Positions 13,912 to 39,430 are shown, counted from the first letter of the stretch. The stretch is DNA of 64,000 bases from an uncultured Acidobacteriota bacterium (GCA_963773605.1 CAVZBT010000012.1:780865-844864), one strand, 5' to 3'. Translations and numbers: made by a program. Notes: generated by a model not told the origin, from the sequence alone.

Positions 13912-13924
13912 GCGGAGCAGAGGA

Positions 13925-21340: not shown

Positions 21341-21377
21341 CAACCGTGGAAAGCTGTGGCCGGAGCGCCGCACGCGG

Positions 21378-23420
21378 TCACTGCAGCCATTGCCGGAGCC
21401 AGGCGAGCACCGTCTCGTGCCACTGGATGGTATTCGCGGGCTTCAGCACCCAGTGGTTTTCGTCCGGGAAATACAGGAAACGCGAAGGTATGCCTTTGCG
21501 TTGAAGCAGGTTGAAGGTCGCGATCCCCTCGGTGTCGACGACGCGATAATCCTTTCCTCCGTGTATGACCAGCATTGGTGTCTTCCAGTTCCGGGCGTAG
21601 CCGAGCGGGCTGTGCTTAGTGTACGCCTCCGGGTCGTCATACGCCGGTCCACCATGTTCCCACTCGGGGAACCAGAGCTCCTCGGTGTTGTAGTAGGCCA
21701 TGTGCTCGTCGAGGTTGCCGTCATGGACGACCAGGCACTTGAACCGATCGGTGTGGCCGGCAATCCAGTTGATCATGTACCCGCCATAGGATGCGCCGAG
21801 CGCGCCTACCCGGCCGCCGTCCAGGAAAGGGTACTTCTGGAGCGCGAAGTCGAGGCCCTTCATCAGATCCTCATAAGGGGCCCCGCCCCAGTCCCCGTTG
21901 ACGGCATCGGTGAAGGCTTGTCCGTACCCGGTCGACGCATGGAAATCGACCGTCAGGGCCACGTAGCCGGCCCCCGCGTAGGCTTGCGGATTCCACCGGT
22001 AGTGGAAATCGTTGCCGAAGGATCCTTGCGGGCCGCCATGGATGAGGAAGGCGACCGGGTACTTCTTCGCCGGATCGAAATCGACCGGATAGACGAGATA
22101 GCCGTAAACGGGTTCTTCCTTCGCTCCTTTGAAAACGAATTGCTCGGGCCTTCCGAATCTGGCGGCGGCGACCCTTGCATCATTGAAGCGGGTGACCCGG
22201 TGCGCATCCGTACCGTCGCGCGCCGCATCGTAGAGTTCGGCGGGACCGAGCAGCGAATGCATGCTGTACAAGATCCGCCCGTTGGGGCGGGGCTGCGGAG
22301 CCGCCGTCGTCCCATCCCGGATCACGATGCGGGTCCCACCGGCGGCGTCGACGGCGAAAAGCGAGTGCTGCCCAAGGTGATCGGCGGTGCAATACAGCTC
22401 GCTGCCGTCGGAGGACCATGCCAGTTCCCCCGCCGAACGGTCACCGCGCGGAGTCTCGTCGGCGCGGAGCACGATCCTGCGTTCCGAGGCGCTTGCCCAG
22501 TCGCGCAGGACGATGTCGTATCGATCCGCTTCATATCCGGCGCGGCTCATGGCCAGGTAGGCCAGGGTTCTGCCGTCGGGAGAAAAGACCGGCTGCGTAT
22601 CCCACGCCGGGTTGCTGGTGAGCTTTCTCGGGGCCTCTGGCGCACCGGCGCGCGCCAGGTAGAGATCGTAGTTTGTCGACCATGCCTCCTCGCGTCCCGC
22701 ATTCTTCGCGGCGAAGACAATCCGCTGGCCGTCGGGCGATATGCCGTACTCCTCGGCGCCGCCGAATGGCCTGGACGGGCAGTCCGCGTCCATCCCCGGC
22801 ATGAGATCGCGCGCGGGTCCTGCGGGGAGCGGATAGATGAACAGGTGATTGCGCGTGCCATCCTCCCACGTGTCCCAATGGCGGATGAACAGTCGGTCGT
22901 ACAGAACGCCGGTGGACTTGGCCTTTGCCCTTTCGTCCAGTAGGCGCCGCGTCTCCTCCGGCGACTTGCCCGGAAAGATCGCGACGGAGAAGGTGAGAAA
23001 CCCGGCGTCGGGAGCAACCCTCAAAGCGTCGACGCCCAGTGGCAACCGCGTCACCTGCTCGGCTTCACCACCGTCGATCCCGAGCCTCCAGACCTGCGGA
23101 GAGCCTCCGCGCGAAGACAGGAAATAGATCCATTTGCCATCCCCGGTCCAGCGCGGCTGGGTGTCGCTCGCCGCGTCGCTGGTCATGCGACGCACGAAGG
23201 AGCCGTCGACGGACGCGACATAAATGTCGGAACGCCGCCCGTTCGCCGCCAGATCGGTTACGCTGACCGTAAAAGCCACCAGCTTGCCATCGGGCGAGAC
23301 CTGAGGATCCGCGATGCGGTCCATCGCCAACATGTCATGCACCGAAAAAGGGTGCGGGGCTGCGCCCTGGCCCCAGACCGCCACAGCCGCGACGAACATC
23401 AGCACCAGCGCCTTACGCAT
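21378..23420 (-). CDS. S9 family serine peptidase (prolyl oligopeptidase/acylaminoacyl-peptidase type) with N-terminal beta-propeller and signal peptide
   Basis: Signal peptide MRKALVLMFVAAVAVWGQ, TolB-like propeller repeats, and a C-terminal alpha/beta hydrolase domain with nucleophile elbow GASYGGYM plus DGNLDEHM/HG acid-His region. Confidence 0.85.
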   Translation of the reverse strand: MRKALVLMFVAAVAVWGQGAAPHPFSVHDMLAMDRIADPQVSPDGKLVAFTVSVTDLAANGRRSDIYVASVDGSFVRRMTSDAASDTQPRWTGDGKWIYFLSSRGGSPQVWRLGIDGGEAEQVTRLPLGVDALRVAPDAGFLTFSVAIFPGKSPEETRRLLDERAKAKSTGVLYDRLFIRHWDTWEDGTRNHLFIYPLPAGPARDLMPGMDADCPSRPFGGAEEYGISPDGQRIVFAAKNAGREEAWSTNYDLYLARAGAPEAPRKLTSNPAWDTQPVFSPDGRTLAYLAMSRAGYEADRYDIVLRDWASASERRIVLRADETPRGDRSAGELAWSSDGSELYCTADHLGQHSLFAVDAAGGTRIVIRDGTTAAPQPRPNGRILYSMHSLLGPAELYDAARDGTDAHRVTRFNDARVAAARFGRPEQFVFKGAKEEPVYGYLVYPVDFDPAKKYPVAFLIHGGPQGSFGNDFHYRWNPQAYAGAGYVALTVDFHASTGYGQAFTDAVNGDWGGAPYEDLMKGLDFALQKYPFLDGGRVGALGASYGGYMINWIAGHTDRFKCLVVHDGNLDEHMAYYNTEELWFPEWEHGGPAYDDPEAYTKHSPLGYARNWKTPMLVIHGGKDYRVVDTEGIATFNLLQRKGIPSRFLYFPDENHWVLKPANTIQWHETVLAWLRQWLQ

Positions 23421-24286: not shown

Positions 24287-26158
24287 TCAGCCTCGCTTGC
24301 CGGCCTGTGTCGGCTCAGCGAGGGCGCGCCGGATTTCCTGCAGGCTGGGGGAGATGCGGCCCAGGGCCTCGCCTACCGAGGCGAAGTAAGCGCCGTAAAC
24401 GGACTGGATGCTCGCGGCCGGAGGCTCGGGCGTCTGCGTCAAACGCGTGCGGCCGCGCAGAAACGAGACGTTGCCCATCTGATTGAAGGCGTCCAGCAGT
24501 GACGCCAGCTGCGGGGCCGTAGAGTAGATCGACTGCTTGATCTTTTCGAAGGCCCCGAGCAACGCGACGGGGGAACCGGTCGGCGTCTGCCGCGCGAGCG
24601 CCAGCCCCTCGTTCAGGGCCTGTGCCAGGCGCGTCGATTCCGCGTCGAGGAGATCGACCGTGTCGCGTTTCACCGGGCCTGCCCGCCTCGCAGCCGCTTC
24701 ATACAACGTCCGCACCCGGCCGACCAGGGCCGGGTCGCGCGAGCAATGCCTGTGCAGCGCCTCGCGCAGGCTCAAAATCTCCACACCCTCCCGCAGGATG
24801 CCCCCTTCGGTCGCATTGATGAAGCGGGTCCCGGGGTGCGTCCCGATCTCTTTGACCATCCAATTCCAGTACGCGGCCAGCTTGTCCGTGGTTTCGACCG
24901 GATGGCCGAAGAGGTCCTCCATGACGACGATCTTGTGCCCCTCTCTCAGTCGCTCCCACCGGCTTTTCCACTCCTGCGGGTTGGATACTCCGGCGAACCA
25001 TTCCGCCTCGGTGTGCAGGCCCGTGCAATAGGTCCTGCCCTCGCTGTGCGCAAGATCCTGGCCTGCGAAAATGACCGGGTCGCACCCGAGGTGCAAAGCA
25101 AAATCCAGGGCCATCGTCGCCACCGACCCCCATGCTTTAAGGCAGCCTTTATCGGCAAGGATGGCCGAAAGCGCCCGCAACGAAGAATCCCGAAACGTGC
25201 AGGTCACCGTCCTGCCCGGAAACTCAGCGAAGACCGCGGGATAGGCCGTGGCTTCGGCGACCAGCAGCGCGCGACGGGTCACTGCGCCTTTGATGTGGAG
25301 AAAGTTCCGGTGGGCCGGGTCCGCGGTGAGAACGAAGTGCGGCTCGATGCCCGCCGCCAGCAGGGGTTTCAAAGCCGTGTCGGTCGCGAGGATGAGGACC
25401 TGCCCCTCCAGGCCGCGTATTTCGTGGATGTTCTTGTCCAGCGACGGACCGGCCGAGACGATCACCGCCGGCTCCCTGGTGAACGCCCCGGCGAACCCCG
25501 AAACGCCTGGGCAGGCAAGCGCCGGCCGGAGGTTCTCCGTGAAATTCCGCAGGAACTCGAGCGACCGGGCGACCAGCGTGTTGATATCGGTCAGGATCTG
25601 AAACGTCCCGCTCCGGATGGTTTCGGCAGCCGCCTTGAACAACCCCGGCGCCTGAGCGATCGAAGGGGCGTGCATGATGAACGTGCACTTCTCCGCCTTC
25701 ACAGGATCAAAGAACTGTCGCCATTGTTCTCCGAGGTCGGGGCCGGACGGAGGCCACGCCAAGTGCAGTTGCGGCAACGAGAGGACGCCCGCCATATCCC
25801 GGGCTTCGAATGCAGCCCTGAGGATCTGGAGATTGGATTCCACCACGAAATAACCGACACTCCGGCCGCAGTTTCTTTCGAGCAGCGCGTCGAGCACATA
25901 CCCGAGTCCGAACCCGAGCAACACATAGCAGTCGCCGGCGGAATATTCCTGTTCCGCGAGCAACGCCCGGGCCTCCTTCACCGGGTCATACCGGCTGTGC
26001 AGCAGGATCGTCGAAGATGGGCCCGCCCAACGGGCGGTTGGCGCTCCGCTGGCCGACGGAAGGACTTCGATCGGAGCCGGACTCGTGCACGACAACAGCC
26101 GGGCGAGCGCGGGCTGGCGCCGCGACAGCAGATCCAGGTTCGCGTTCAAATAGTCCAA
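24287..26158 (-). CDS. Maf-like (motility-associated-factor) DUF115 family glycosyltransferase (6-hydroxymethylpterin diphosphokinase MptE-like fold)
   Basis: Central region REPAVIVSAGPSLDKNIHEIRGLEGQVLILATDTALKPLLAAGIEPHFVLTADP is the hallmark of PF01973 (Maf/DUF115). The 623-aa size and TPR-like flanks are typical of flagellin/pilin nonulosonic-acid transferases. Confidence 0.7.
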   Translation of the reverse strand: MDYLNANLDLLSRRQPALARLLSCTSPAPIEVLPSASGAPTARWAGPSSTILLHSRYDPVKEARALLAEQEYSAGDCYVLLGFGLGYVLDALLERNCGRSVGYFVVESNLQILRAAFEARDMAGVLSLPQLHLAWPPSGPDLGEQWRQFFDPVKAEKCTFIMHAPSIAQAPGLFKAAAETIRSGTFQILTDINTLVARSLEFLRNFTENLRPALACPGVSGFAGAFTREPAVIVSAGPSLDKNIHEIRGLEGQVLILATDTALKPLLAAGIEPHFVLTADPAHRNFLHIKGAVTRRALLVAEATAYPAVFAEFPGRTVTCTFRDSSLRALSAILADKGCLKAWGSVATMALDFALHLGCDPVIFAGQDLAHSEGRTYCTGLHTEAEWFAGVSNPQEWKSRWERLREGHKIVVMEDLFGHPVETTDKLAAYWNWMVKEIGTHPGTRFINATEGGILREGVEILSLREALHRHCSRDPALVGRVRTLYEAAARRAGPVKRDTVDLLDAESTRLAQALNEGLALARQTPTGSPVALLGAFEKIKQSIYSTAPQLASLLDAFNQMGNVSFLRGRTRLTQTPEPPAASIQSVYGAYFASVGEALGRISPSLQEIRRALAEPTQAGKRG

Positions 26159-26353: not shown

Positions 26354-27091
26354 ATGAAACCGATGCGAATCCGGGCCCCACGAAGCCTCTACAGTCCCGC
26401 GCCGAGACTCAATCAGCTGCGTATCCTGGAGCAGATTGCCGCCGACCACGGCATCACGCAATCCGAACTGGCCCAGCGGTGCTCCCTTTCTGTGGCGATG
26501 GTTAACAACTACATGAAGGAACTGTGCGCCCGCGGCCTGCTGGAATACCGCCGTCGGACGGCGAAAACCATTTCCTACCATGTGACGCCGGGCGGCCGGC
26601 AAAGCGCCGAGGCAACCCAGAACGAGCTGCTGCGCGAGAGCATAGCATCGTTCGCGGACACGAAGGACTGGGTGCGGAAAATCATCATGGGCCAGGCTCG
26701 CCGCAAACTTTATCGGGCGGTCTTGTACGGGAGCGGGGTCCTGGCCGAGATTGCTTTCCACGCGCTGGAATCGGCCCGGGTGAGTATCGTCGGTGTGTGC
26801 AGCGGCGACCCGGCGGAAATCGGGAAGGAGTGGTGCGGTCGTGAAATGTCGAGTCCCGCGCAAATCCGCTACCTGGCTCCGGACGCAGTGGTGATCGCGC
26901 TGGAAGAGGGCGCCGACCCCGTCTGGCGGGCGCTGACTTACCTGGCCCGCTACGACATCGACCTGATACGGACAGACCGCGTCCCCGCCTGCCTCCAGGT
27001 CGACGACCCCGAACTTGCCGGGTCCAGCGCGACACTCGCGGGACGCGCAGCGCATCCATCGGACACCGGAACGCTTGCAGGTGACAGATGA
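26354..27091 (+). CDS. winged-helix (MarR/IclR-like) transcriptional regulator fused to a C-terminal Rossmann-like module
   Basis: N-terminal wHTH (LNQLRILEQIAADHGITQSELAQRCSLSVAMVNNYMKELCARGLLEY). C-terminal about 90 aa (RKLYRAVLYGSGVLAEIAFHALESARVSIVGVCSGD...YDIDLIR) has a GxGxxA dinucleotide-binding-like motif. Transcribed divergently from the Maf-like gene. Its stop overlaps the GT4 start (ATGA). Confidence 0.65.
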   Translation: MKPMRIRAPRSLYSPAPRLNQLRILEQIAADHGITQSELAQRCSLSVAMVNNYMKELCARGLLEYRRRTAKTISYHVTPGGRQSAEATQNELLRESIASFADTKDWVRKIIMGQARRKLYRAVLYGSGVLAEIAFHALESARVSIVGVCSGDPAEIGKEWCGREMSSPAQIRYLAPDAVVIALEEGADPVWRALTYLARYDIDLIRTDRVPACLQVDDPELAGSSATLAGRAAHPSDTGTLAGDR

Positions 27092-28479: not shown

Positions 28480-29781
28480 ATGAAGAGAAAAGTGCTCTAC
28501 GTCGCGCACGGACATCCGGCATTCTCTCCGGGGGGAGGGGAACTGGCCGCCGCGCACCTGCATCAGGCGATGAAGGCCACTGCCGGCTATGAGCCCCACC
28601 TGTTGGCCAGGGTCGACGATGCCGACGGCCGTTTCCGCCACTCCGGCGCGCCGCTGATCGGGTATCAGCGGGACGACTCCACCCACCTCATTGCGAGCAA
28701 CAGCGGCCACTACGACTACTTCTTCCACACCAAGATCGATTCCCGCCTTGCGGAGGCGGACATGTTCGCCTCATTTCGCGAGTTCCTCCTTGCGCTCCAA
28801 CCGGACGTGGTGCACTTCCAACACTTCATCCACCTCGGTGCGGACCTGATGTGCTATGCCCGGTCCCTGCTCCCGCACGCGAAAATCGTCCTCACGCTGC
28901 ACGAATACGAGGCCATCTGCGCCAACCAGGGTCTGATGCTCACGACAGACGGACGACGGTGCCGCCGCGCATCGACACTGGAGTGCTGCCGTTGCTTCCC
29001 GCACCGCAAGCCGCGAGAGTTCTTCCTGCGGGAGCGCCTGATCAAATCCAACTTCGCGGTCGTCGACCGGTTCATCGCACCCAGCCATTTCCTGAAGACC
29101 CGCTACGTGGAGTGGGGGATCGCTCCTGGGCGCATCCTGGTGATGGACAACGGGCGACCGGTCTGGCGCGGGCGGGAGCGCCCGCCCAGGCGGCTGGGGC
29201 AGCTGTTTCGACCCGCCTTCTTCGGGCAAGTCGTCGCGCACAAAGGCTGCGACGTCTTCCTCCGGGCCGCCGAGGAATACCTCCAATCTCAGTCGCGCCC
29301 CGGCCGGGAGCTGCCCCAGGTCCGCTTTGGCCTCTACGGGGCACGACACTGGATGTCGGGATCGCCGGCAGAAGAGCTCGACCGCCTGATCGAGCGGACG
29401 CGCGGCGTGGTGCATCATCACGGCGCCTACGACATGGACTGCATGCCGGACCTGCTGAGCGGTGTCGATTGCGTCGTGCTTCCCTCGCTCTGGTGGGAAA
29501 ACTCCCCGCTGGTGATCCAGGAAGCGTTCATGGCGGGACTGCCGGTCGTCTGTTCAAACATCGGCGGCATGGCGGAGAAGGTGACCGACGGCGTCAACGG
29601 CCTGCACTTCGCCGTCGGCGATCATTTCGATCTGCTGCGGAGGATCCTCGAACTCGCGGCCTCTCCGGAGCTCTACGGCCGGCTCGTAACGGGCATCCCC
29701 GGAATTCTCTCCGCGGGGGAGATGGCCGGCCGGATCACGACACTCTACGACGAACTGCTCGAAGGCAACCCAGCGTCATGA
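28480..29781 (+). CDS. glycosyltransferase family 4, copy B (tandem paralog of 27088-28473, about 65% aa identity by eye)
   Basis: Same architecture and motifs (VLPSLWWENSPLVIQEAFMAGLPVVCSNIGGMAEKVTDGVNGLHF, RCRRASTLECCRCFP). Its stop overlaps the start of the next gene (ATGA at 29778-29781). Confidence 0.85.
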   Translation: MKRKVLYVAHGHPAFSPGGGELAAAHLHQAMKATAGYEPHLLARVDDADGRFRHSGAPLIGYQRDDSTHLIASNSGHYDYFFHTKIDSRLAEADMFASFREFLLALQPDVVHFQHFIHLGADLMCYARSLLPHAKIVLTLHEYEAICANQGLMLTTDGRRCRRASTLECCRCFPHRKPREFFLRERLIKSNFAVVDRFIAPSHFLKTRYVEWGIAPGRILVMDNGRPVWRGRERPPRRLGQLFRPAFFGQVVAHKGCDVFLRAAEEYLQSQSRPGRELPQVRFGLYGARHWMSGSPAEELDRLIERTRGVVHHHGAYDMDCMPDLLSGVDCVVLPSLWWENSPLVIQEAFMAGLPVVCSNIGGMAEKVTDGVNGLHFAVGDHFDLLRRILELAASPELYGRLVTGIPGILSAGEMAGRITTLYDELLEGNPAS

Positions 29782-32700
29782 CCATGAATAGCACGATCGG
29801 GCACCAGTACATCACCGACGCAAGAGACTACCGGCATCTGGCGGACCGAAAGCGCTACAAGGCCCTGTACGACGACGTAGGCACGCTCGAGGCCAACCGC
29901 CAGGTCCGCCGGCGCGAAGAGCGGATGAAATATTTCAACCCGAGGCCGGCGGCCCGCATCCTGGAACTGGGCGCGCACAACGGGCCGAACCTGATCCACT
30001 ATGCCCGGAAGGGGCATGTGGTTCACGGCGTGGAATTATCCGACACCCTCGCCGAAACGTTCGTGTCCGCCCTCGCCGGTGAACCTCCGGACGTGCAGGC
30101 CCGGATCCGCATGTACCGGGGATGGATAGCGGACTTCAAACCCGAGGAGTCTTACGACCACGTGCTCTGTGCCGAGATACTCGAGCACGTCACCGACCCG
30201 GTGGAAGTCCTGAAGGTCGCGCGCGCGGCCCTCACCGCTTCGGGCACGCTCTACCTCTCGGGCCCCTCCCGCCACTGGGGGAACAACACCTACGTCCGGG
30301 GCGTGCCGGCAGCAGACCTGGAACGCTGGCTGAAGTCCGCCCGCCTCACGTACTCGGAGATGTGGGAGGAAGAAGGACGGACATTCTGCATCGCCCATGC
30401 AACCGATTTGCGAGTGATTGGCCTGACGAGGGTCCGGAACGAGGCGGCCATCATCCGGGAAACATTGGATCACATGGCGCGGTTCTGCAACGGCGGCATT
30501 GTCGTGTACGACGACGTCTCGTCGGACTCGACCCCCGAGATCTGCCGCGCGCACCCTGCAGTCCTCGACGTCGTGCGGGGAGAACTCTGGGACGGCAATA
30601 GGGGTCGGGCAGAATACGCCGGCCGGGCGGTCCTCCTTGCCCGTGGAAAGCGAGAAGCCGGGCCGCGCGATTGGTTCGTTTACATGGACGCGGATGAAAG
30701 AATCGAGTTCGACTGGAGCAGTCTCCTGCTCTGCCCTGACGACGTCGTGGGCGTGCGGATGAAGCTATTCGACTACTACATCACGGAAGAGGACGTGCAG
30801 AGATCCTACGCGGAACGCAGGTGGCTAGGACCCGAGTACCGGCCCATTCTGATGGCATTCCGCAACCTGCCGTCGCTTTCCTACAGCCGTCCGGACCAGC
30901 GCCAAGCGGACCTCGGGCCCGACGGCACGATCCTGGATGCCGGCCACGTCAAGCACTACGGCAAGGCGGTTTCCGTCGCGCAGTGGGAGGACGCCTGCCG
31001 GTACTACAGCGGTTACTTTGCCGGCTACGCGGCGAAATGGAACGCGCGCAAGGGAAAGGCCGTCCACACGCACTCGGACTTCGGCAACCCCTTGATCAGG
31101 TGGGAGGAGAAGGAAGCCAAGGGCATCCCGCTGACGCCCGAGATCGAGGCGGCCGCGGCGCAGAAGACGCTCGCCGAGCCGCGGCCCGGTCTGAGGGTGC
31201 TCCTGACGAATCATCAACTGCTGGACTTCACAGGCTCCGAGCTCTTCACCTATACCGTCGCCGATTTCCTGAGGAGAGAGGGGCACGAAGTCGTCGTCTA
31301 CTCCCGGTACGTCGACAAGATCGGCCGCCGGCTCCGCGGCATCGGCGTGCGGGTCGTGCAGGACCTGGACGAAATCGCCGGCGAGCGGTTCGACATTGCC
31401 CACGTGCATCACAATCTCAACGCGATGGAAATCCGGCACCGCTTCCCACAATTGCCGATCATCATGGTCTCCCATGGCGTTCTTCCCTTCCTGGAGCAAC
31501 CGCCGGCCGTCGACCTGAGGATCGCCCGGTACCTCGCGGTGAGTGAGGAGGTCCGAGAGAATCTCCTGTCAAGGGGCGTGCCGGCCGGAACTGTTTCGGT
31601 TTTCAGAAACGTCGTGGACTCACAGCGCTTCAGCCCCACTTGCCCGATCCGGGAGAAGCCGGAGCGCGCGTTAGTCCTGAGTTCACGGCTCGACTCCGGG
31701 CGGGAAAGGACCGTTCGGGAAGCGTTCTCGGCCCTGGGCATCCTGGGACGCTTTGTGGGGGGGCGCTTCGGAGAGGCTGACCCGTCGCTGTTGCCCTCGT
31801 ACATCAACGAGGCCGATATCGTGTTTTCCCTCGGAAGAGGCGCAGTCGAGGCCATGCTGTGCGGCCGCATCCCGGTGATATACGACTATCTCGGCGCAGA
31901 CGGGCTCGTGACCCCGGGAAACCTCGGGGACCTGATGGCGCGCAATTTCTCGGGCCGGACGCACCGCACGGAATACACCCCGGCACAACTGGCCGATGAG
32001 ATCCGGCAATACCGAAGAGAGTATGGATGGCAGCTCCGCACCCTTGCGTTGGAGCACTTCGACGCCGGGACGAGGATGCCGGGGTTGATCCGGATCTACC
32101 ACGAGGCGCTTTCCGTCGCCGTCCCCGAAATGTCTACGCGAGACAAAGAACAACTGTCGGCCTTCGTCGAAACCGTCCGTGAGACCCGGAATTACTCCTA
32201 CAGCCAGGTGATCCGGAAGCACGGCCGGGATCTCCAGGCCCTATCCCGCACGACCATACCGGCCCCCGGGCTGCCCACGGGCGCAGAGGCGGCGCGATCG
32301 GCAGCGGAGCTCAGGGATCTGCTCTGGCTCGACGGCACGGAATCCGGCGCACACCACGAGCTCGGACTGTTGCACTATGCGCGGGGCAGCAAACACGACG
32401 CGCTGGAGTGTTTCCGAAAGGCGGTGGAGCTTGACCGTGAAGATGCCGCGGCCAGCAAGGACCTGGCCCTGCTTTATCTGGAAATGTGGCCGGCGCTCGC
32501 GCGGGAAAGAGATGAGCGCACGGAGCAGCTGCAACGGCAGGAATGCCGGATAAAGGAACTCGAGGCCCACAATTCGAACCTCCGGCAAATCGTGGAGTGC
32601 ACCATGCCGCGGATGCGCACCGAGCTCTACGAGGAGAAGATGTTGAGGCTGGCGAGCCGTATCCGGCGGCGCGGCATTCGCGACGTGCTCGTCTACGGCG

Positions 32701-32957
32701 CAGGCGAAGCGGGCCGGGCCTTTGCCAGGGCAGCCCAAACCGTCGGGCTGCGCCCCTGCGGTTTTGTGGATAAGAAGCCATCCCTGTGGGGATCGCAGGT
32801 GGAGGGCGTGGAGGTCCTGTCCCTCGACGCCGCCATGGGCAGAGGCATTCACGTGTACGCGGTCGGATCGTTCGCCTTTGCTTCCGAGATCCAGCACGAG
32901 ATCCGCCTCGCCTACGCCGCGGCCGGGTGCAGACCGCGGATTTTTGCGATCCATTGA
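29778..32957 (+). CDS. 1059-aa multidomain enzyme: class I SAM-dependent methyltransferase, GT2-like domain, GT4-like domain, TPR/coiled-coil, and C-terminal Rossmann-like module
   Basis: MT: ILELGAHNGPNLIHYARKGHVVHGVELSD...VLCAEILEHVTDP. GT2-like: VIGLTRVRNEAAIIRETLDHMARFCNGGIVVYDDVSSDST...YMDADE. GT4-like: LRVLLTNHQLLDFTGSELFTY...GRIPVIYDYLGADGLV. TPR: HELGLLHYARGSKHDALECFRKAVELD, then a coiled coil. C-terminus: VLVYGAGEAGRAFARAAQTVGLRPCGFVDKKPSLWGSQVEGVEVLSLD. The ORF-track start 28851 is an artifact of an open frame overlapping the GT4-B gene. Confidence 0.8.
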   Translation: MTMNSTIGHQYITDARDYRHLADRKRYKALYDDVGTLEANRQVRRREERMKYFNPRPAARILELGAHNGPNLIHYARKGHVVHGVELSDTLAETFVSALAGEPPDVQARIRMYRGWIADFKPEESYDHVLCAEILEHVTDPVEVLKVARAALTASGTLYLSGPSRHWGNNTYVRGVPAADLERWLKSARLTYSEMWEEEGRTFCIAHATDLRVIGLTRVRNEAAIIRETLDHMARFCNGGIVVYDDVSSDSTPEICRAHPAVLDVVRGELWDGNRGRAEYAGRAVLLARGKREAGPRDWFVYMDADERIEFDWSSLLLCPDDVVGVRMKLFDYYITEEDVQRSYAERRWLGPEYRPILMAFRNLPSLSYSRPDQRQADLGPDGTILDAGHVKHYGKAVSVAQWEDACRYYSGYFAGYAAKWNARKGKAVHTHSDFGNPLIRWEEKEAKGIPLTPEIEAAAAQKTLAEPRPGLRVLLTNHQLLDFTGSELFTYTVADFLRREGHEVVVYSRYVDKIGRRLRGIGVRVVQDLDEIAGERFDIAHVHHNLNAMEIRHRFPQLPIIMVSHGVLPFLEQPPAVDLRIARYLAVSEEVRENLLSRGVPAGTVSVFRNVVDSQRFSPTCPIREKPERALVLSSRLDSGRERTVREAFSALGILGRFVGGRFGEADPSLLPSYINEADIVFSLGRGAVEAMLCGRIPVIYDYLGADGLVTPGNLGDLMARNFSGRTHRTEYTPAQLADEIRQYRREYGWQLRTLALEHFDAGTRMPGLIRIYHEALSVAVPEMSTRDKEQLSAFVETVRETRNYSYSQVIRKHGRDLQALSRTTIPAPGLPTGAEAARSAAELRDLLWLDGTESGAHHELGLLHYARGSKHDALECFRKAVELDREDAAASKDLALLYLEMWPALARERDERTEQLQRQECRIKELEAHNSNLRQIVECTMPRMRTELYEEKMLRLASRIRRRGIRDVLVYGAGEAGRAFARAAQTVGLRPCGFVDKKPSLWGSQVEGVEVLSLDAAMGRGIHVYAVGSFAFASEIQHEIRLAYAAAGCRPRIFAIH

Positions 32958-32970: not shown

Positions 32971-34032
32971 ATGACCGAATCGGACAAGCTCAGCGTCATC
33001 GTGCTGATGCACAACAACGTTCCCATGACACGGAACTGCCTGGAGACCCTGTCGAAGGCGGTTACGGGATTGGACCACGAAGTCCTTCTGCTGGACAACG
33101 CCTCGACCGATGACACGGGACCGCTGCACGAGTGCGGTGGCTGGTTCCAACGGTTCAAGATCTGCAGGAACGAGGACAACAGCCCGTTCGCCTCGGCGAA
33201 CAACCGGGCCGTGCGCGAGACCTCGGGGCAATGGCTTCTTTTCCTCAACAACGACGTGACCGTGGGGCGCGACAGCGTCGAGCGGCTGCTGGCGCCGCTC
33301 CGCGAAGACCAGGGAATCGGCATCACGGGGGCCAAGCTGCTTTTCCCCGGCGAGGCGGCAGTCCAGCACGCGGGCATCGGACAGATGTTGTGGGGTTACC
33401 CAAGCAACTACGGGGTAGGCGCCTCGCCCGTGGATGCCAGGGTGAACCAGCGTTGCGAGCGGTTCGCGCTGACGGGCGCGATGCTCTGCCTGAGACGCAG
33501 TGTCTTCGAAACGGTCGGCGGTTTCGACGAGCGCTACGTCTGGGGCGTCGAGGACGTCGACCTCTGTCTGAAGATCAGGGCCGCCGGCCTCAAACCGGTC
33601 TATCAACCGGAGGCCGTCAGTGTGCACGTCGAATCCGCTACCCTGAAGGTCACCCGGACGTGGGACCTGGACCACAACTACAGGCTTTACCGGAACCTCT
33701 GGGACAGGGAGCTGCGCGCGCGTGAACAGGGCTATGTGCGCCGGCTCGAACGCGAGGGGATTCGCAGGGTCGCTGTGTTCGGAACCGGAGTCGCCGCCCG
33801 GGGACTGGCGCGGGTGCTCGACGACAGTGGCATCCGGATCGTGACCTTCACGTCATCGCAAACGGCAGGCACGGGCGAAATCTTCCTCGATAGGCCGGTG
33901 CTCCCGCTTGTCTCCCTCAAGAGGGTCGCCTACGACAGGCTGATCGTGGCGACGCAGTACTTTTTCGAGGTGGAGCCGATCCTCCGTGCGTTGGACCCGG
34001 TGGGGGAGCCGATTTTCCCGGTCTTGATGTGA
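32971..34032 (+). CDS. glycosyltransferase family 2 fused to C-terminal Rossmann-like module
   Basis: GT-A motifs (LSVIVLMHNN...LLLDNASTDDT...ANNRAV...LFLNNDV (DxD)...GVEDVDLCLK). C-terminal VAVFGTGVAARGLARVLDDSGIRIVTFTSS...YDRLIVA is homologous to the C-termini of 26354-27091 and 29778-32957. Confidence 0.8.
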   Translation: MTESDKLSVIVLMHNNVPMTRNCLETLSKAVTGLDHEVLLLDNASTDDTGPLHECGGWFQRFKICRNEDNSPFASANNRAVRETSGQWLLFLNNDVTVGRDSVERLLAPLREDQGIGITGAKLLFPGEAAVQHAGIGQMLWGYPSNYGVGASPVDARVNQRCERFALTGAMLCLRRSVFETVGGFDERYVWGVEDVDLCLKIRAAGLKPVYQPEAVSVHVESATLKVTRTWDLDHNYRLYRNLWDRELRAREQGYVRRLEREGIRRVAVFGTGVAARGLARVLDDSGIRIVTFTSSQTAGTGEIFLDRPVLPLVSLKRVAYDRLIVATQYFFEVEPILRALDPVGEPIFPVLM

Positions 34033-34051: not shown

Positions 34052-35200
34052 ATGAGCGCTGAACCGTTGACGATTTTTCACATGATTGCCCAGCTGCGGC
34101 TCGGCGCGGGCCGGGTGGTGGCCGACGCCGCGATCGAGCAGGCGCGCGGAAGGGGGCACCGGGTGACGGTCTGTGTGAGCGCCGACGCGGAGGCGCACTG
34201 GCGCACGGATCCGAGACTCGCCGCCGAACTGGAGCGCCACAACATCGAGGTCCACACCCTCGGGGACTTCTTCCATCGCCGGCCCGATCAGCTTCGCCGC
34301 GCCGCGGAGCAACTGCGGGGCGCGCTGTCGAGGGACGGCGGCGCGGTCGTAGTGCATGCGCACACGGCCATGGCCGCAGCCGTCGGGCACTGGGCGCAGC
34401 CCGACGCCCTGGTTGCGACCTGTCACGGATGGGGCGCCGGCAGGCCTCAGGACATGGACCTGCAGGACGCCCTGGCTTACCAGCTGTGCGACGCGGTCCT
34501 CACCTACTCCCGCCACTGGGCAGCCCGGCTCAGTCAGGACCTGGGAGTGCGCTCTCCGAGGCTGATCCCGATGGGCCTCGACCTCGAACGGTTCCCGGAA
34601 TCGCGCATGACGCGCCGCGCTCAATCGACGCCATTCCGGGTGGTCACGGTCTGCGAGTTGACGGCGCGCAAGGGCGTCGACCTGCTTCTCGATGCCATGC
34701 CGGCAGTCTGGAGCCGCCTCCCGGACGCGGAGCTGCACATCATGGGTACCGGGGACCTGGCCGCCGAGCTGCGGTTCAGGGCGGCGGACCTTGACCCCGG
34801 TGCGAAGCGCATCGTTTTCTACGGCGCCGTCGCGAACCCGTATGCGCGGTTGGCGGAATTCGACCTCTTCGCCCTCGCCAGCAGGTCCGATAACCTGCCG
34901 GTCGTTCTGCTGGAAGCCATGCTGGCCGGGCTGCCGATTGTGGCCGCGGGGGTGGGCGGGGTTCCCGATCTCCTCTGCGCCGCAGGGTGCGGCGCCGTCG
35001 TTCCCTCGGGCTCCCCCCAGGCGCTCGCGGACGAAATCCTCGCCATGGCCCGGCTCGACCAGTCTAAGCGGGTCGAACAGGGATACAGCGGCGAGCAGTA
35101 TGCCCGCCGCGAATTCGACGCGCGCAGGGCAACCGCGTGCCTGGAGCAAATCTATCTCGAGGCGCTCGACAAGAAGCGCACCGAGGCTTCGCGCGGATAA
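34052..35200 (+). CDS. glycosyltransferase family 4
   Basis: GT-B fold with C-terminal FALASRSDNLPVVLLEAMLAGLPIVAAGVGGVPDLL motif. No membrane segments. Confidence 0.85.
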   Translation: MSAEPLTIFHMIAQLRLGAGRVVADAAIEQARGRGHRVTVCVSADAEAHWRTDPRLAAELERHNIEVHTLGDFFHRRPDQLRRAAEQLRGALSRDGGAVVVHAHTAMAAAVGHWAQPDALVATCHGWGAGRPQDMDLQDALAYQLCDAVLTYSRHWAARLSQDLGVRSPRLIPMGLDLERFPESRMTRRAQSTPFRVVTVCELTARKGVDLLLDAMPAVWSRLPDAELHIMGTGDLAAELRFRAADLDPGAKRIVFYGAVANPYARLAEFDLFALASRSDNLPVVLLEAMLAGLPIVAAGVGGVPDLLCAAGCGAVVPSGSPQALADEILAMARLDQSKRVEQGYSGEQYARREFDARRATACLEQIYLEALDKKRTEASRG

Positions 35201-35207: not shown

Positions 35208-37670
35208 ATGGGCATGCGGCCACCCCACATCATTCAGACAATCCCACTCCCCCGCTCAGGCGCTGCGCAGCCCGGCCCGCTCCACACGATCGTTTCGGAC
35301 GCCGCGGATAACCTTTACTACTCGGACGAAATCAACCACAGCATCGTCTCGCTGGACGACAAACGACAGGTCCGCTGGCAGAGGACGGCCTGCGGCAGCG
35401 CCCCAGGTGAGTTTCAATACCCGCGCGGCCTCTCCATCGGCTGGGTTGAACGGGACGGGCAGACGGTGCAGTGCGTGGCCATATGCGACGCCTGGAACCG
35501 TCGCGTGCAATTCCTGGATTTGTCTGGGAACCCGGTCCTGTCGTGGACGGGTGCGGGACAAAAACCGTTCGGGGAGGTCGCCGACGTCAGGTTCATCGCC
35601 GGCGACTTCAATCAAGGCCGCGCCGGCAAACCGATGAGCTTCTGGTTTGTGCTCGACCGGGGCAATCACCGTCTCTGCGCGATGTCCCTCGGCGGACAGC
35701 TTCTGTTTGAAATCGGGCGCGGTTTCCCTCCACATATGGGAACCCGCTGGGCGGTCCCGGGTCTGTTTCTCGAAAGCGAGCTGGAGCACGCCGGTCTGGT
35801 AAAAGACTTCCCTGCCCTCGATTTCACCTTCTACCCGGAGCGCATACTCGGGGATTCGGAGAACGCTCTCTACGTGTGGGAACCTTCCCCGCGGATCCTC
35901 AGGCAGGTCCTGCTCGGGAATTTGCTCCCGGTGAGGATCGCCGCGGAGAGACCGCTCGACTGGGTGTCCGCCGATGAATCCGGGTTGATCGGCTGGGACA
36001 GGCCACGCCGCCTCCTGTTCTACGGCTGGACCGGGGAACTCGAGCAGACGCTGGAAATCGCCGGCAACCCGATCGGGACCAGCAACTCGCCCGAGGGGTT
36101 CTGGCTCCAATGCGGCAGACAGATCGAACGGTGGGCCCGCGACGGCTTCGATCGGATCCGTTGTGAGCCGCGATTCCTCGATATCCGGGCTCCGCTGCTG
36201 CGGACCGCGCAGGCCGAGCTCGAGCGGTTCGATGGTGTCGCGTCGAGCACAGCGATCCGGCAGTGGACGGCCGTTGTGGACGACGGCCTGGCCCTGGCCG
36301 ACGAAGTGCTGACGCCGGAGCGGGACGAGGCCGCGCCGGACCTGAACCACACCCTGGCCGCGCTATGCGACCTGCCGCACAAACTGGGAGCCGCCGAGCA
36401 GCGGGTGCACGAGACCCTTCATGGTTTCTGCCTCGGCACCCTCGAGTGTCATCTGTCCGGAAGCCCGAACGGTGCCGGCAGCAACTCGATCGCCGGGGCG
36501 CGCAAACGATGGGCGCCGCTTTTTGAGCCCATCCGCACCAGGTTCGCGCCCCTGGCCGCGCGGTTGGACGACCTCCGGGCGCGCCGGCTCGGCATTGCCG
36601 CCGAAAGCCTGTCCCATCGACGCTGGGCGGATTCGTGGTGCCAGGCGGCCGGGGCCTGCGAAGAGCATCTCCAGCGCACCTTGGAATGGATCTACCGGTG
36701 GTCCGGCGTGGTCGAGGGGACCCAGGAACTGTTGCCTCTGCCGTGGATCCTGCCTCTGCCCGAGACACTGCGAGACCAGGCGCGCGCGCCAGGCCACGCG
36801 GCGTCCCGCAGGTCCCGCTGGAGCTACACACCGAAGCCGTCACGCCTTCGGGAAGTCCACAGGATGCCACTGGGCGCCGCTCCCTCGCCGCTGCATCCTC
36901 ACGGCCTCGCCTTCCTCGACGAGCGCCTGTTTGTGAGCCTCAACGGCGGCCACGAGGTCGTCGAGCTTCACCCGGCAGGCAACGTGACCCGCCGCATTGG
37001 AACGGGGGGAAGCGCCGCCGGCGCACTACGAAGGCCGGCGGGAATCGTGTTCGACGGTCGTGGGCGGCTCTGGGTGGTCGATTCCGAGAACCGGCGCGTG
37101 GTGTTATTGGACCTGGAACGCGGCTCCGCCGACCGCATCCCATCGGGCGCCGAATCGCCCTGGCTGAACTGCCACCCGTTCGGGATCGGCAGGATGGCCG
37201 ACGGATCGATGCTCGTGAGCGACTCGGGCAACCGCCTTGTGCGGGTCCGGCTCGACGGCGCCTGGGACATCCACACCGGGATTCAAGGAACGGGGTTAGG
37301 AGAGTTCCGGAATCCGACCCAGGTCAGCCCCGGGCTGGGGGGCACTCTCTGGATCGTGGACCGAAATAATCACCGCGTCCAGAAGCTTGACTCGGAAGGG
37401 CGATGCCTCCAGGCGATCGGCCGTTGTGGCCTGGGCCACGGGGAGCTGTTCACACCGGAGAGCGTCGCCCAGTTTGAAGACGGCGTCGTCGCCGTCGCGC
37501 AGAACCGCTGGAACCGCTGCATCAAGCTGTTCACGCCCGAGGGAGTTGAATTCGACAGGACGGTGCTCACCTACTTCGCGGAAGGCATGCGGGTCCACGG
37601 CGGCCGGCTGTACGTGGCGGCCATGGACCAGGATGCGATCGTCGTCTACGAACGCGAACAGGGCACTTGA
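35208..37670 (+). CDS. NHL-repeat (six-bladed beta-propeller) protein with central helical domain, cytoplasmic
   Basis: N-terminal NHL-like repeats (LYYSDEINHSIVSLD..., FVLDRGNHRLCAMSLGGQLL) and C-terminal NHL repeats (LWVVDSENRRVVLLD, LVSDSGNRLVRVRLDG, LWIVDRNNHRVQKLDSEG, AVAQNRWNRCIKLF) flank a roughly 330-aa alpha-helical region. No signal peptide. Start at the internal Met 35208 (MGMRPP). Confidence 0.75.
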   Translation: MGMRPPHIIQTIPLPRSGAAQPGPLHTIVSDAADNLYYSDEINHSIVSLDDKRQVRWQRTACGSAPGEFQYPRGLSIGWVERDGQTVQCVAICDAWNRRVQFLDLSGNPVLSWTGAGQKPFGEVADVRFIAGDFNQGRAGKPMSFWFVLDRGNHRLCAMSLGGQLLFEIGRGFPPHMGTRWAVPGLFLESELEHAGLVKDFPALDFTFYPERILGDSENALYVWEPSPRILRQVLLGNLLPVRIAAERPLDWVSADESGLIGWDRPRRLLFYGWTGELEQTLEIAGNPIGTSNSPEGFWLQCGRQIERWARDGFDRIRCEPRFLDIRAPLLRTAQAELERFDGVASSTAIRQWTAVVDDGLALADEVLTPERDEAAPDLNHTLAALCDLPHKLGAAEQRVHETLHGFCLGTLECHLSGSPNGAGSNSIAGARKRWAPLFEPIRTRFAPLAARLDDLRARRLGIAAESLSHRRWADSWCQAAGACEEHLQRTLEWIYRWSGVVEGTQELLPLPWILPLPETLRDQARAPGHAASRRSRWSYTPKPSRLREVHRMPLGAAPSPLHPHGLAFLDERLFVSLNGGHEVVELHPAGNVTRRIGTGGSAAGALRRPAGIVFDGRGRLWVVDSENRRVVLLDLERGSADRIPSGAESPWLNCHPFGIGRMADGSMLVSDSGNRLVRVRLDGAWDIHTGIQGTGLGEFRNPTQVSPGLGGTLWIVDRNNHRVQKLDSEGRCLQAIGRCGLGHGELFTPESVAQFEDGVVAVAQNRWNRCIKLFTPEGVEFDRTVLTYFAEGMRVHGGRLYVAAMDQDAIVVYEREQGT

Positions 37671-37717: not shown

Positions 37718-39430
37718 TTATGCGATCAGTTCGGAGATGACCGCGCCCCACTTCCGCTCGTGCCGCCGGGCGTTGATGAAATGCAGGGAGCGGCGCACGT
37801 CGGAGGCCCACGACGCCCCCTCGAGGTGATAGAGCTCAACCCGGTTGTCGCAGAGTGTCCTCCTGCCCTGCTCCCTGAACCGCAGGCAGATGTCCGAGTC
37901 CTCGTAGTCGCCGCGGACAAAGCCGCTGTCGAGCATCCCGAGCGCCCGGTACTCCGCAGTCCTGAACATCATGCAGGCGCCGGTGACGGCGTGCACTTCG
38001 GTCAGCCCGTGGCATGGGACCAAGGCCGGGCTCATTCCCTTGTACGGGTGGTAGTTCACCAACAGATCCTGGAGGGCGGGATCGCGGCGCCAGGTCAGCC
38101 CGGCGTGCTGTAGCGACTCATCAGGGTACAGGAGCCGCGCTCCGACGATCCCGGCGGAGGGGTCGGCTTCCAGGTCCGAAATCAGGGTCTGCAGCCACTC
38201 CCTGGACTTCGGGAAGACGTCGGAGTTGAGCAGGAGGAGGTAGGTCGCGCGGGCAGCGGTTGCGCCGATGTTGCACGCCATGCTGAAACCGCACGTGCGA
38301 TTGGTGACCAGAAGCCGGACGGGCACGCCATACAAATCGTACAACCGGTGCAGCCGGACCTTGAACCGCTCCGGGTCGTCTTCCTCATCGTCGACATGGT
38401 GCTGGACCAGTATCAGTTCCTGCTGTTTGAGGAACGGATCGGCGGAGAAGTCCGAAAGCTGGTGCCGGATCAAATCGTAGGCCCGGAAGAAAGGCACCAC
38501 GATGCTGACCTTGGGATGCCGCGGCGCGTCGCCGAACTGGTACGCGGCAATCACCTTCACGCCGCTGTTCGCCTCGGCGTTCAAGGCTGCAATCACGTCG
38601 AGGAAGCGCTCTTCGGCGCCCATGCTCCGCTCGACGGATCGGCGGGCCGGGCCGCAGCAACGATTGAAGGCGACGACGAATTCGTCCAGCAGCGCTGCGG
38701 TGTCGGATGAGGGGTCGAGGTCGAGCGTACGCTCGCACCCGTCGGGATAACGGATGCGCAGCGCCGTTGAGTGGAATCGGGGAGGAACGAAGATCGCAAC
38801 CCCGGTCTTGTCGTCGGGCGCGCCGGCATCCGGGCCCGGATACCGAAACACGGCGGCTTCAACCGGCGCGGAGCCGGCATCACCGAGCAACGTCAGTCTA
38901 TCCGCGGGAACGCCGCCATCGGGGAGCCGGCCGACAATCGCCAGCGCGCCGTCATCGCTGCGGAAGCAGCTAATTGCCTGTTGATGGCAAACCGAGCCGG
39001 CCACAGCCATCGCCCCGCGCGCCGGCCAGGGAGAGAGGCTGCGCAGGCTCAGGTCGGGAGTCATGACATAGGCCGGAACCTCGCCGCACCCCCGGGCAAA
39101 ACCGACGAGCTGCTCGAATCCCTTGCCGTCCTTATTCCCCAGCGGCACCACGACGGCCGCGCACTTGTCCCAGTCCAGTTTCCCCTCGAGTTGCGAGCGC
39201 ATATCCGCTTCCAGGAACCGCTGCCCGCGATAATGTATGGTCTCGGCCCACGAGGGGTAGCGCTGGAGGTTGCCGGCGTTTGCTTCGAAAACCACCACAC
39301 GGTGGCGGGGGAACTGTGTGCGGATTTTGCCCAGGCATTCCGTGAAGGCATCCCACGGGACGCACCTCGGAACCAGGACGGCGGACGAATCGGCGGCAGG
39401 CATCAACACCTCCGGGGAAAAGGGCTTCAA
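37718..39430 (-). CDS. glycosyltransferase family 2 with about 300-aa N-terminal domain of unknown function
   Basis: C-terminal GT-A: VSIVVPFF...ACNIGATAARATYLLLLNSDVFP...DYEDSDICLR. The N-terminal half has no recognisable motifs. Its start overlaps the rfbD stop. Confidence 0.8.
   Translation of the reverse strand: MKPFSPEVLMPAADSSAVLVPRCVPWDAFTECLGKIRTQFPRHRVVVFEANAGNLQRYPSWAETIHYRGQRFLEADMRSQLEGKLDWDKCAAVVVPLGNKDGKGFEQLVGFARGCGEVPAYVMTPDLSLRSLSPWPARGAMAVAGSVCHQQAISCFRSDDGALAIVGRLPDGGVPADRLTLLGDAGSAPVEAAVFRYPGPDAGAPDDKTGVAIFVPPRFHSTALRIRYPDGCERTLDLDPSSDTAALLDEFVVAFNRCCGPARRSVERSMGAEERFLDVIAALNAEANSGVKVIAAYQFGDAPRHPKVSIVVPFFRAYDLIRHQLSDFSADPFLKQQELILVQHHVDDEEDDPERFKVRLHRLYDLYGVPVRLLVTNRTCGFSMACNIGATAARATYLLLLNSDVFPKSREWLQTLISDLEADPSAGIVGARLLYPDESLQHAGLTWRRDPALQDLLVNYHPYKGMSPALVPCHGLTEVHAVTGACMMFRTAEYRALGMLDSGFVRGDYEDSDICLRFREQGRRTLCDNRVELYHLEGASWASDVRRSLHFINARRHERKWGAVISELIA

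Follow-up and report, generated by a model that had tools for sequence, protein, structure and literature searches.

Several described bacterial glycosylation enzymes each resemble, in part, the protein studied here, a predicted multidomain transferase of 1059 amino acids (aa) encoded at positions 29778-32957 of a 64,000-nucleotide stretch of DNA from an uncultured Acidobacteriota bacterium (GCA_963773605.1, CAVZBT010000012.1:780865-844864). We refer to the whole stretch as the window and to the protein as the target, and all coordinates count from the window's first letter. GmaR, a single-glycosyltransferase (GT) protein of ~637 aa from Listeria monocytogenes that we take to be that organism's flagellin O-linked N-acetylglucosamine (O-GlcNAc) transferase, combines a GT2 domain with tetratricopeptide repeats (TPRs), lacks a methyltransferase, a GT-B domain, a long helix and a Rossmann module, and glycosylates flagellin in the cytoplasm in addition to acting as an anti-repressor directed at MogR. 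SunS and ThuS, presumably peptide S-glycosyltransferases, are single-domain GT2 enzymes for small bacteriocin precursors and, like GmaR, glycosylate the polypeptide directly in the cytoplasm. In WbdD and WbbB, multidomain enzymes that depend on Wzm/Wzt and on membrane association, the capping activity (a methyltransferase in WbdD) is set apart by a coiled coil whose length sets the length of the glycan chain. FlmG of Caulobacter and the Maf proteins transfer nonulosonic acids and carry long TPR domains (residues 1-313 in FlmG) that are separate from the GT domain; FlmG binds flagellins through its TPR domain (PMC7591256), and Shewanella Maf-1 owes its flagellin specificity to a C-terminal TPR (PMC13317340). 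Flagellins that carry rhamnose or methyl-rhamnose have been documented, with rml genes near fliC (PMC5207245, PMC5109656).

The nearest documented architectural analogue that we found is WsaE, which takes part in S-layer glycan synthesis in Geobacillus stearothermophilus NRS 2004/3a. By its described architecture, WsaE resembles the target in joining an N-terminal O-methyltransferase to two GT domains, both rhamnosyltransferases, in one soluble chain, and it works with deoxythymidine diphosphate (dTDP)-rhamnose genes and single-domain GT neighbors in a cluster with overlapping stop and start codons (PMC2943079). Unlike the target, whose locus has no exporter, WsaE acts on a lipid-linked rhamnan and adjoins wzm/wzt, and its published description mentions no counterpart of the target's TPR, long helix or C-terminal Rossmann module. 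The likeness to GmaR lies in the sequence of the GT-A domain, which finds in GmaR its best match in the PDB; this similarity spans ~150 residues of GT-A only, and the target differs from GmaR by its methyltransferase, GT-B domain, long helix and Rossmann module. SunS and ThuS are the second- and third-best PDB sequence relatives of the same domain. With FlmG and Maf-1 the target shares a TPR separate from its GT domains, and a Maf-like gene lies nearby; its TPR is short, however, and we found no sequence relationship between its catalytic domains and FlmG or Maf-1. As in WbdD and WbbB, several domains are strung together, here with a helix that varies in length among orthologs, whereas neither Wzm/Wzt nor membrane association is evident for the target. 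The sequence-only reading of this DNA had pointed to methyltransferase-GT-TPR giants from Gram-positive flagellin glycosylation islands; in the literature on Clostridium and Paenibacillus flagellin islands we found no such protein, only rml genes and separate methyltransferases.

The domain superfamilies are well known, as are multi-GT enzymes with TPRs in flagellin or S-layer glycosylation. What we did not find described is this GT-A/GT-B core family, its six-module form, a helix and Rossmann module common to neighboring transferases, a methyltransferase that is alternately fused to a Maf-like protein, and the spread of one core over flagellar, O-antigen and phage settings. To our knowledge, cytoplasmic protein O-glycosylation with several, methylated sugars is poorly understood beyond a few pathogens, and almost nothing is known of it in Acidobacteriota, Ignavibacteria and Marinimicrobia. 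With a conserved GT-A/GT-B pair, a methyltransferase that switches partners and a candidate docking module in neighboring enzymes, the family offers a testable case.

Gene and module architecture

The target gene and its six predicted modules are arranged as follows.

29778-32957, plus strand: target gene, 1059 codons and a stop; alternative start at 29784; same gene model in public databases
29778-30398, plus strand: module 1 (residues 1-207), predicted class I S-adenosylmethionine (SAM)-dependent methyltransferase, placed by Pfam, motif I, AlphaFold2 and Foldseek
30414-31172, plus strand: module 2 (residues 213-465), predicted GT-A/GT2 glycosyltransferase, placed by Pfam, conserved residues and a PDB profile match
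31194-32117, plus strand: module 3 (residues 473-780), divergent GT4-like GT-B glycosyltransferase, placed by Pfam (N-terminal half), AlphaFold2, Foldseek and invariant residues
32136-32432, plus strand: module 4, helical linker (787-823) and short TPR of ~2 repeats (836-885), placed by Pfam TPR_2, phmmer and AlphaFold2
32445-32669, plus strand: module 5 (residues 890-964), single long helix, a coiled-coil-like spacer, placed by AlphaFold2
32682-32954, plus strand: module 6 (residues 969-1059), small Rossmann-like domain with YGAGEAG at 973-979, placed by AlphaFold2 and Foldseek

The target open reading frame (ORF) is a genuine coding sequence. Translation of 29778-32957 yields 1059 uninterrupted codons followed by a stop, and the guanine-plus-cytosine (GC) content at third codon positions (GC3) is 0.81 over the full length and 0.76-0.87 in each 300-nucleotide block of 29778-32777, in line with the ORF that had been proposed. 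An identical 1059-aa protein is on record in public databases and from a second source, a 3463-bp contig in the Logan assembly of run ERR15459707. Relatives P0002, L047 and L048 show the identical full architecture at 65-67% identity, and the fused architecture is common to more than 10 homologs at 52-67% identity. The earlier view that the gene begins inside the stop codon of the upstream GT4 gene also stands: the ATG at 29778 shares bases with the TGA that ends the gene at 28480-29781, the overlap reading gtcATGAccATGaat. Translation could equally well begin at another ATG, at 29784 (codon 3), and from the sequence either start would couple the target tightly to the upstream GT4. A mechanical ORF list prolongs the target to a GTG at 28851, giving 1368 aa; the nearest in-frame stop upstream lies at 28590. 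Codon-position GC places the change of coding frame at ~29780, and before that point it is the frame of the GT4 gene that shows high GC3, so that the extension had rightly been called spurious.

An AlphaFold2 model of the target, built on 51 homologs, has a mean predicted local distance difference test score (pLDDT) of 90.8. It resolves a methyltransferase (1-207), a GT-A domain (213-465) and a GT-B domain (473-780), followed by a linker with TPR (787-885), a single helix (890-964) and a Rossmann-like domain (969-1056). The five modules that had been read from the sequence are all present by Pfam and AlphaFold2, the model dividing them into six units.

In the N-terminal module, Pfam class I methyltransferase models match residues 46-211 above their gathering cutoffs (Methyltransf_23, 46.2 bits against a cutoff of 27; Methyltransf_12, 39.6 against 30; Methyltransf_11, 32.9 against 21.2; Methyltransf_25, 31.1 against 27). 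The predicted SAM-binding motif I, ELGAHNG, is found at residues 63-69 within the stretch ILELGAHNG (61-69). Foldseek matches the unit to the SAM methyltransferases MtfA, CcbJ and cg3271 at E 1e-8 to 1e-7. By profile, motif I and fold, module 1 is a class I SAM methyltransferase, with methyl transfer itself as its predicted activity.

The GT-A domain is matched at residues 220-317 by Glyco_tranf_2_4 (36.6 bits, cutoff 27.5) and Glycos_transf_2 (27.2 bits, cutoff 23.3). Residues D245, D246, S248 and D250, which form the predicted acidic nucleotide-binding motif DDxSxD, and the tetrad D304-A305-D306-E307 are invariant in the 51 homologs and in a 22-sequence domain alignment; the latter, DADE at residues 304-307, supplies the DxD motif that had been looked for in the GT2 part. 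A whole-protein profile run against the PDB was swamped by TPR matches, and we therefore searched the domains one by one. Among all PDB sequences, the GT-A profile best matched GmaR (PDB 22ao, E 4.3e-9), followed by ThuS/SunS entries (7msk, E 4e-8; 7msn, E 4e-6). By profile, the catalytic domain is thus homologous to the flagellin glycosyltransferase GmaR.

The GT-B domain is more divergent. Its N-terminal half matches Pfam Glyco_transf_4 at residues 486-617 (35.3 bits, cutoff 28.5), and its C-terminal half matches neither Glycos_transf_1 nor Glyco_trans_1_4 at E <= 1. In the AlphaFold2 model it forms two Rossmann halves, for which Foldseek returns the GT4 enzymes ManT (7qsg), HepE (4xsu), MshA (3c4q) and BshA (5d00) at E 2e-9 to 2e-7 with target-normalized TM-scores of 0.53-0.62, as well as WaaB. 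A GT-B profile run against the PDB gave only weak GT4 matches (E 1e-4). Eleven residues are invariant in the 51 homologs (G486, E488, E591, G686, R687, E691, D708, G709, S725, G726 and R727), and they include the catalytic-type GSE, E591, GRGxxE and DG. By eye, the EX7E-like stretch (G686-R-G-A-V-E691-A-M) retains only the second glutamate, which is invariant. Judged by these invariant residues, both GT domains look catalytically competent. We did not adopt the top Foldseek match, the methylmannose polysaccharide mannosyltransferase 7qsg, as a functional clue, as it scores no better than other GT4 enzymes. A search of BFVD viral structures returned generic multi-GT proteins only.

Behind the catalytic domains, Pfam finds a TPR at residues 858-902, with TPR_2 at 858-888 scoring 25.3 bits, just below its cutoff of 27; phmmer matches the same region to consensus TPR proteins. 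The long helix that follows spans 75 residues and has weak heptad periodicity, with hydrophobic residues at 11 of 22 a/d positions. The sequence-only reading had called this region TPR and coiled coil: the repeats and a long helix are indeed there, whereas the coiled coil amounts to a single predicted helix with weak heptads. Between the TPR and the C-terminal module, the spacer measures ~30 to ~155 residues among homologs, ~45 in the target and ~30 in P0020. In P0003 (~900-1040) and P0004 (~925-1080) it reaches ~145-155 residues of near-perfect 7-residue repeats (xARNLExH). This variation in length prompted us to consider the helix as a molecular ruler, an idea we did not adopt: the heptads are weak, the protein ends in a soluble Rossmann-like domain rather than a membrane anchor, and no Wzm/Wzt of the kind that accompanies the WbdD/WbbB rulers turned up among the window ORFs scanned.

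The C-terminal domain, placed by structure prediction and Foldseek, models confidently on its own (residues 951-1059, pLDDT 95.6); searched alone, it has no Pfam or NCBIfam match above cutoff. Whole-protein scans give faint Pfam Rossmann-type matches at 957-1036 and a weak NCBIfam match to NeuD/PglB/VioB N-terminal domains at 970-1020, and in homologs the same region is covered by Pfam C2185-like_N or Methyltransf_14. Its Foldseek matches comprise 3nkl (deposited as uridine diphosphate (UDP)-D-quinovosamine 4-dehydrogenase), Rex domains that sense nicotinamide adenine dinucleotide (NAD), part of the priming transferase WbaP, VioB, and the sugar C-methyltransferases KijD1 and TcaB9. As modeled, module 6 is of a small domain type found repeatedly in enzymes that act on nucleotide sugars. 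The last ~100 residues of the neighboring GT2 (~33740-34029 within the gene at 32971-34032) carry the same short-helix and Rossmann-like module (BLASTP E 7e-7, with an alignment over the module), and the ortholog of this neighbor in L046 has a weak Pfam C2185-like_N match. The sequence common to the two proteins suggests that the helix and Rossmann-like module may serve as a docking module.

Operon, family and genomic contexts

Three genes precede the target in a tightly packed operon on the plus strand, with a divergent Maf-like gene upstream and rml-type genes downstream.

24287-26158, minus strand: Maf-like (MptE-like/DUF115) protein, divergent from the operon; Pfam MptE-like E 6.5e-36; NCBIfam PseD E 6e-13, below cutoff
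26354-27091, plus strand: winged-helix (MarR-like) protein, first gene of the operon; Pfam HTH_24/MarR_2; stop overlaps the next start; kept in L006
27088-28473, plus strand: GT4 glycosyltransferase A; Pfam Glycos_transf_1 and Glyco_trans_4_4; 63% identity to the single GT4 of L051
28480-29781, plus strand: GT4 glycosyltransferase B; Pfam; 57% identity to the single GT4 of L051; stop overlaps the target start
32971-34032, plus strand: GT2 glycosyltransferase with a C-terminal module as in the target; Pfam Glycos_transf_2
34052-35200, plus strand: GT4 glycosyltransferase; Pfam and NCBIfam
35208-37670, plus strand: 820-aa NHL-type beta-propeller protein, last gene of the operon; Pfam NHL; repeats at both ends
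37718-39430, minus strand: 570-aa GT2 glycosyltransferase; Pfam; 43% identity to the GT2 of L051
39427-40344, minus strand: RmlD, dTDP-4-dehydrorhamnose reductase; NCBIfam TIGR01214, 272.5 bits (cutoff 224)
40424-41502, minus strand: NAD-dependent sugar epimerase/dehydratase (RmlB-like), frameshifted; Pfam Epimerase; break near 40957-41008
41519-42343, plus strand: RmlC-like dTDP-sugar 3,5-epimerase; Pfam dTDP_sugar_isom E 4e-36; NCBIfam rmlC 116.6 bits, below the cutoff of 155.75

The window has ~64% GC and acidobacterial gene content, and its nearest relatives are metagenome-assembled genomes (MAGs) of Acidobacteriota and Vicinamibacterales. GT4 A and GT4 B are tandem paralogs, and the 570-aa GT2 is the ortholog of a 590-613-aa GT2 that precedes the target homolog at further loci from acidobacteria (L045, L046). 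The Maf-like gene, which weakly matches a family named for the flagellin modification protein PseD, is kept beside the target family in the window, L001, L002, L006, L045, L046 and L049-L051. The NHL protein has, by eye, no obvious N-terminal signal peptide and no obvious serine/threonine-rich tract; its gene occupies the same operon-end position in L047 (full length) and L006 (fragmented) and is absent from L045, L046, L050 and L051. The intact L006 ortholog of the split epimerase aligns by tblastn to 40424-41502 in two frames, at 94% and 87% identity, which from the sequence would fit either a pseudogene or an assembly indel. The true start of the RmlC-like gene is probably internal to 41519-42343. 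The only adenosine triphosphate-binding cassette (ABC) system in the window is an efflux set of MacB/FtsX/HlyD type (12730-17194). We found neither a Wzm/Wzt exporter or flippase nor a polyprenyl-phosphate priming transferase or ligase among the window ORFs scanned or in L051; neither nonulosonic-acid synthesis genes nor glycocin-type genes were seen in the window.

A word-seeded search gave 63 homologs of the target, and when 1.84 billion cluster representatives were searched exhaustively with residues 213-800, 470 matched at E <= 1e-30, stand-alone GT-B or stand-alone GT2 proteins making up many of them. In a metagenome scan, the single protein used as query returned nothing and an alignment of the subclade returned 80 loci. 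The nearest locus among those that the genome scan returned is L006, an Acidobacteriota MAG, at 81% identity to the target. There, the target ortholog (9368-13172) is split into two ORFs at ~11763-11827 and the NHL gene is fragmented too; these breaks are probably indel errors in the MAG and would account for a truncated 609-aa entry, P0010.

Across the homologs the conserved core is the GT2+GT-B pair; the methyltransferase, TPR, helix and Rossmann module vary in their presence. Several genomes encode the two halves of the core as neighboring genes of their own, in one case in swapped order. In a Vicinamibacterales MAG (L001 1-2156, from GCA_046331305.1; L002 6771-9389), the methyltransferase is instead fused to the Maf-like protein, and this fusion gene overlaps the start of P0019, a homolog that lacks the methyltransferase, suggesting translational coupling. 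Such rearranged fusions, that is split halves and a methyltransferase moved to the Maf-like protein, indicate that the parts work together.

We placed the target in its family with a neighbor-joining tree built from 184 GT2 domains. In it, all 12 sequences from acidobacteria (window, L001/2, L006 and L045-L052) are monophyletic and have flagellar-locus sequences as their nearest sisters, within an enclosing clade of 29 leaves (13 flagellar, 12 acidobacterial, 4 other); viral and Wzt-context sequences lie further out, the latter outside the target's clade. Median GT2-domain identity to the target follows the same order, at 57.5% for flagellar loci, 48% for viral and 40% for Wzt. The acidobacterial group conserves a set of Maf-like protein, GT4, ~600-aa GT2, target and ~350-400-aa GT2, sometimes joined by an RmlA-like gene or a PhyH gene. 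The helix and Rossmann module were gained in this subclade, the flagellar-locus relatives being without them.

Seventeen loci place a homolog within 10 kb of flagellin, FliD, FliS or FlaG genes. P0011 is followed by flagellin, FliS, FliD, FlaG and FliT; P0021 has flagellar rod/hook genes on one side and three flagellins on the other, RmlC and two epimerases standing directly upstream of it; and P0032 is divergent from flagellin, FlaG and FliD. The other 14 come from Ignavibacteria, Melioribacteraceae, Marinimicrobia, a Bacteroidetes MAG and a deltaproteobacterial MAG.

Candidate functions and acceptors

We read the target as a cytoplasmic enzyme that would build a methylated oligosaccharide of rhamnose-type (6-deoxyhexose) sugars directly on a protein before its secretion, a reading that we hold to have an even chance of being right. 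Among possible acceptors flagellin is the likeliest, a more tentative proposal that falls somewhat short of that chance. Protein glycosylation is suggested by the lack of export and lipid-carrier genes, the GmaR/SunS-like GT-A domain, the Maf-like neighbor, the rml genes, and the way the subclade nests within a clade of flagellar-locus sequences. The sequence-only reading had arrived at protein glycosylation, citing flagellin glycosylation islands in its support. The flagellar-locus relatives, the GmaR match and the Maf-like and rml genes speak for a flagellin reading, while no flagellin gene was found in the window or in the subclade loci.

In the mechanism that we propose, the target would act as a soluble multi-enzyme within its glycosyltransferase operon. 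The GmaR/SunS-related GT-A domain, which would be metal-dependent and inverting because it depends on its DxD motif, would transfer one sugar from a nucleoside diphosphate sugar, and the GT4-like GT-B domain, presumably retaining, would add another. The N-terminal SAM methyltransferase would O-methylate a sugar of the growing glycan, by analogy with the N-terminal domain of WsaE. The short TPR may recruit the acceptor protein or a partner enzyme, and the long helix with the C-terminal Rossmann-like module may oligomerize the enzyme or dock it to the neighboring GT2 that carries the same module. That three catalytic domains in one chain carry out successive steps, as had been suggested, is a plausible prediction; we likewise infer the donor sugars, the order of the steps, the target of methylation, the identity of the acceptor and the formation of a complex.

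Several observations weigh against this reading. Among the ORFs scanned in the 64-kb window there is no flagellin or other flagellar gene, and none of the 12 subclade loci contains flagellin, FliD, FliS or FlaG, including L050 and L051 with 7-10 kb of flank per side. The tree that ties the subclade to flagellar loci was built by a crude method that gives no support values. The donor sugars rest solely on the neighboring rml genes, of which one is frameshifted; no RmlA occurs in the window (L051 has an RmlA-like gene). The TPR, with ~2 repeats, is much shorter than those of FlmG or GmaR, and the organism is an acidobacterium rather than a Gram-positive. Beyond the flagellar loci, nine loci (L005, L022, L023, L025, L026, L029, L031, L034 and L104, among them Flavobacteriaceae and Aeromonas schubertii) carry a homolog, mostly a 590-aa core, directly downstream of Wzm and Wzt(+Wzt_C). 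In P0052 (868 aa, on a 3.9-kb Logan contig), a Wzt-like ATPase with a C-terminal extension is followed by the GT2 and then the methyltransferase, in the order opposite to that of the target; its sequence would tie the GT2+methyltransferase pair directly to ABC-transporter-dependent glycan export. Together, the Wzm/Wzt loci and P0052 suggest that the GT2+GT-B core can act on lipid-linked glycans.

Viral relatives also weigh against the flagellin reading. We found 77 IMG/VR loci (L127-L203) at 30-58% best-segment identity, 69 of them with both halves of the core, five with a methyltransferase, eight with a Maf-like gene and none with flagellin or Wzt. The Maf-like gene is therefore not a flagellin-specific marker here, as eight viral loci carry one without flagellin. 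In L072, the core (9971-11583) shares its strand with PhoH and PIN, a phage-type exonuclease, a metalloprotease, an M23 peptidase, a cytidylyltransferase and several other GTs. Such gene content suggests that the viral relatives belong to phage-encoded glycosylation clusters.

Two alternatives survive best, each of which we regard as unlikely. The first holds that the target extends or terminates a lipid-linked polysaccharide (O-antigen, S-layer glycan or exopolysaccharide) for ABC-transporter-dependent export, in the manner of WsaE, WbdD and WbbB: the two GTs would polymerize a rhamnan-type chain, the methyltransferase would cap its non-reducing end as an export signal, and the helix would act as the chain-length ruler. 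WsaE, in which an N-terminal methyltransferase likewise precedes two GT domains and which has rml genes as partners, provides its precedent (PMC2943079). The core homologs directly downstream of Wzm and Wzt fit it as well, but they are the most distant of the family and fall outside the target's clade, and no Wzm/Wzt, priming transferase, flippase or ligase turned up in the window, L045, L046, L050 or L051. P0052, with its Wzt-like ATPase fused to the same GT2 and methyltransferase, likewise speaks for it. A spacer that ranges from ~30 to ~155 residues among orthologs, with the 7-residue repeats of P0003 and P0004, would suit a ruler, and the C-terminal domain resembles the Rossmann-like domain of the priming transferase WbaP; in the target, however, the heptads are weak and the chain ends in that soluble domain instead of a membrane anchor.

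The second, to which we assign a similarly low probability, accepts the cytoplasmic setting and changes the acceptor. It would be the 820-aa NHL protein or another secreted protein modified in the cytoplasm, or the product would be a soluble cytoplasmic methylated polysaccharide, of which the mycobacterial methylmannose polysaccharide is an example; the acidobacterial subclade would have been re-purposed after leaving the flagellar locus. Consistent with this, none of the 12 subclade loci has flagellin nearby, yet the Maf-like protein, GT4, GT2 (613 aa), target and GT2 (398 aa) are kept together, and the subclade gained a helix and Rossmann module that its flagellar-locus relatives lack. The distance from flagellin is less telling than it may seem, as flagellin glycosylation genes can lie apart from the flagellin genes, flmG in Caulobacter being a case in point. 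The NHL gene closes the operon in L047 and L006 as it does in the window, but it is not a conserved partner, being absent from four other subclade loci, and by eye its product has neither an obvious serine/threonine-rich tract nor an obvious signal peptide. The phage relatives show that the cassette works without flagellin. The top GT-B structural match, 7qsg, points to methylmannose polysaccharide, although generic GT4 enzymes match as well. Should the acceptor in Acidobacteriota be something other than flagellin, the target would point to glycoproteins of a new class in a phylum abundant in soil; should it be flagellin, the result would extend the known flagellin glycosylation islands in a useful but incremental way.

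Still more doubtful, in our estimate, is a broader version, in which the GT-A and GT-B pair, with or without the methyltransferase and the Maf-like protein, is a portable cassette that has moved among flagellar, Wzm/Wzt and phage settings and was re-wired in Acidobacteriota for a non-flagellin acceptor, for example the co-operonic NHL protein. The shared helix and Rossmann docking module would then hold together a multi-enzyme machine, and the helix of variable length would set the spacing of active sites or the length of the glycan. The occurrence of the core in flagellar, O-antigen exporter and viral settings does suggest a reusable cassette for capping or extending glycans, with the acceptor set by accessory domains.

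Finally, that the 3.2-kb ORF is an assembly or frameshift artifact joining separate genes, or a decaying pseudogene, is effectively excluded. Broken genes do occur in this assembly (the epimerase at 40424-41502 and an NAD-glutamate dehydrogenase at 51992-56274), the GT2 and GT-B halves are separate genes in some genomes and the L006 ortholog has a frame break, but indel errors split ORFs and do not join them in frame, GC3 is even with no internal stop, the identical protein comes from a second source, more than 10 homologs are fused alike, catalytic-type residues are conserved, and AlphaFold2 confidence is high in all modules.

Two further observations concern the window itself. The large NAD-specific glutamate dehydrogenase (51992-56274, minus strand) appears as two overlapping ORFs, 53788-56274 with the ACT/HM part and 51992-54634 with the catalytic part, and its split is probably a second frameshift or indel in the assembly. 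The plus-strand ORF at 19893-22943, which starts with ATG and spans 1016 aa, is only the shadow of genes on the opposite strand: by codon-position GC and Pfam, the minus strand encodes a peptidase S9/PD40 protein (21378-23420) and a protein with a twin-arginine translocation (TAT) signal (20205-21338). ORF length alone is an unreliable guide in this high-GC window.

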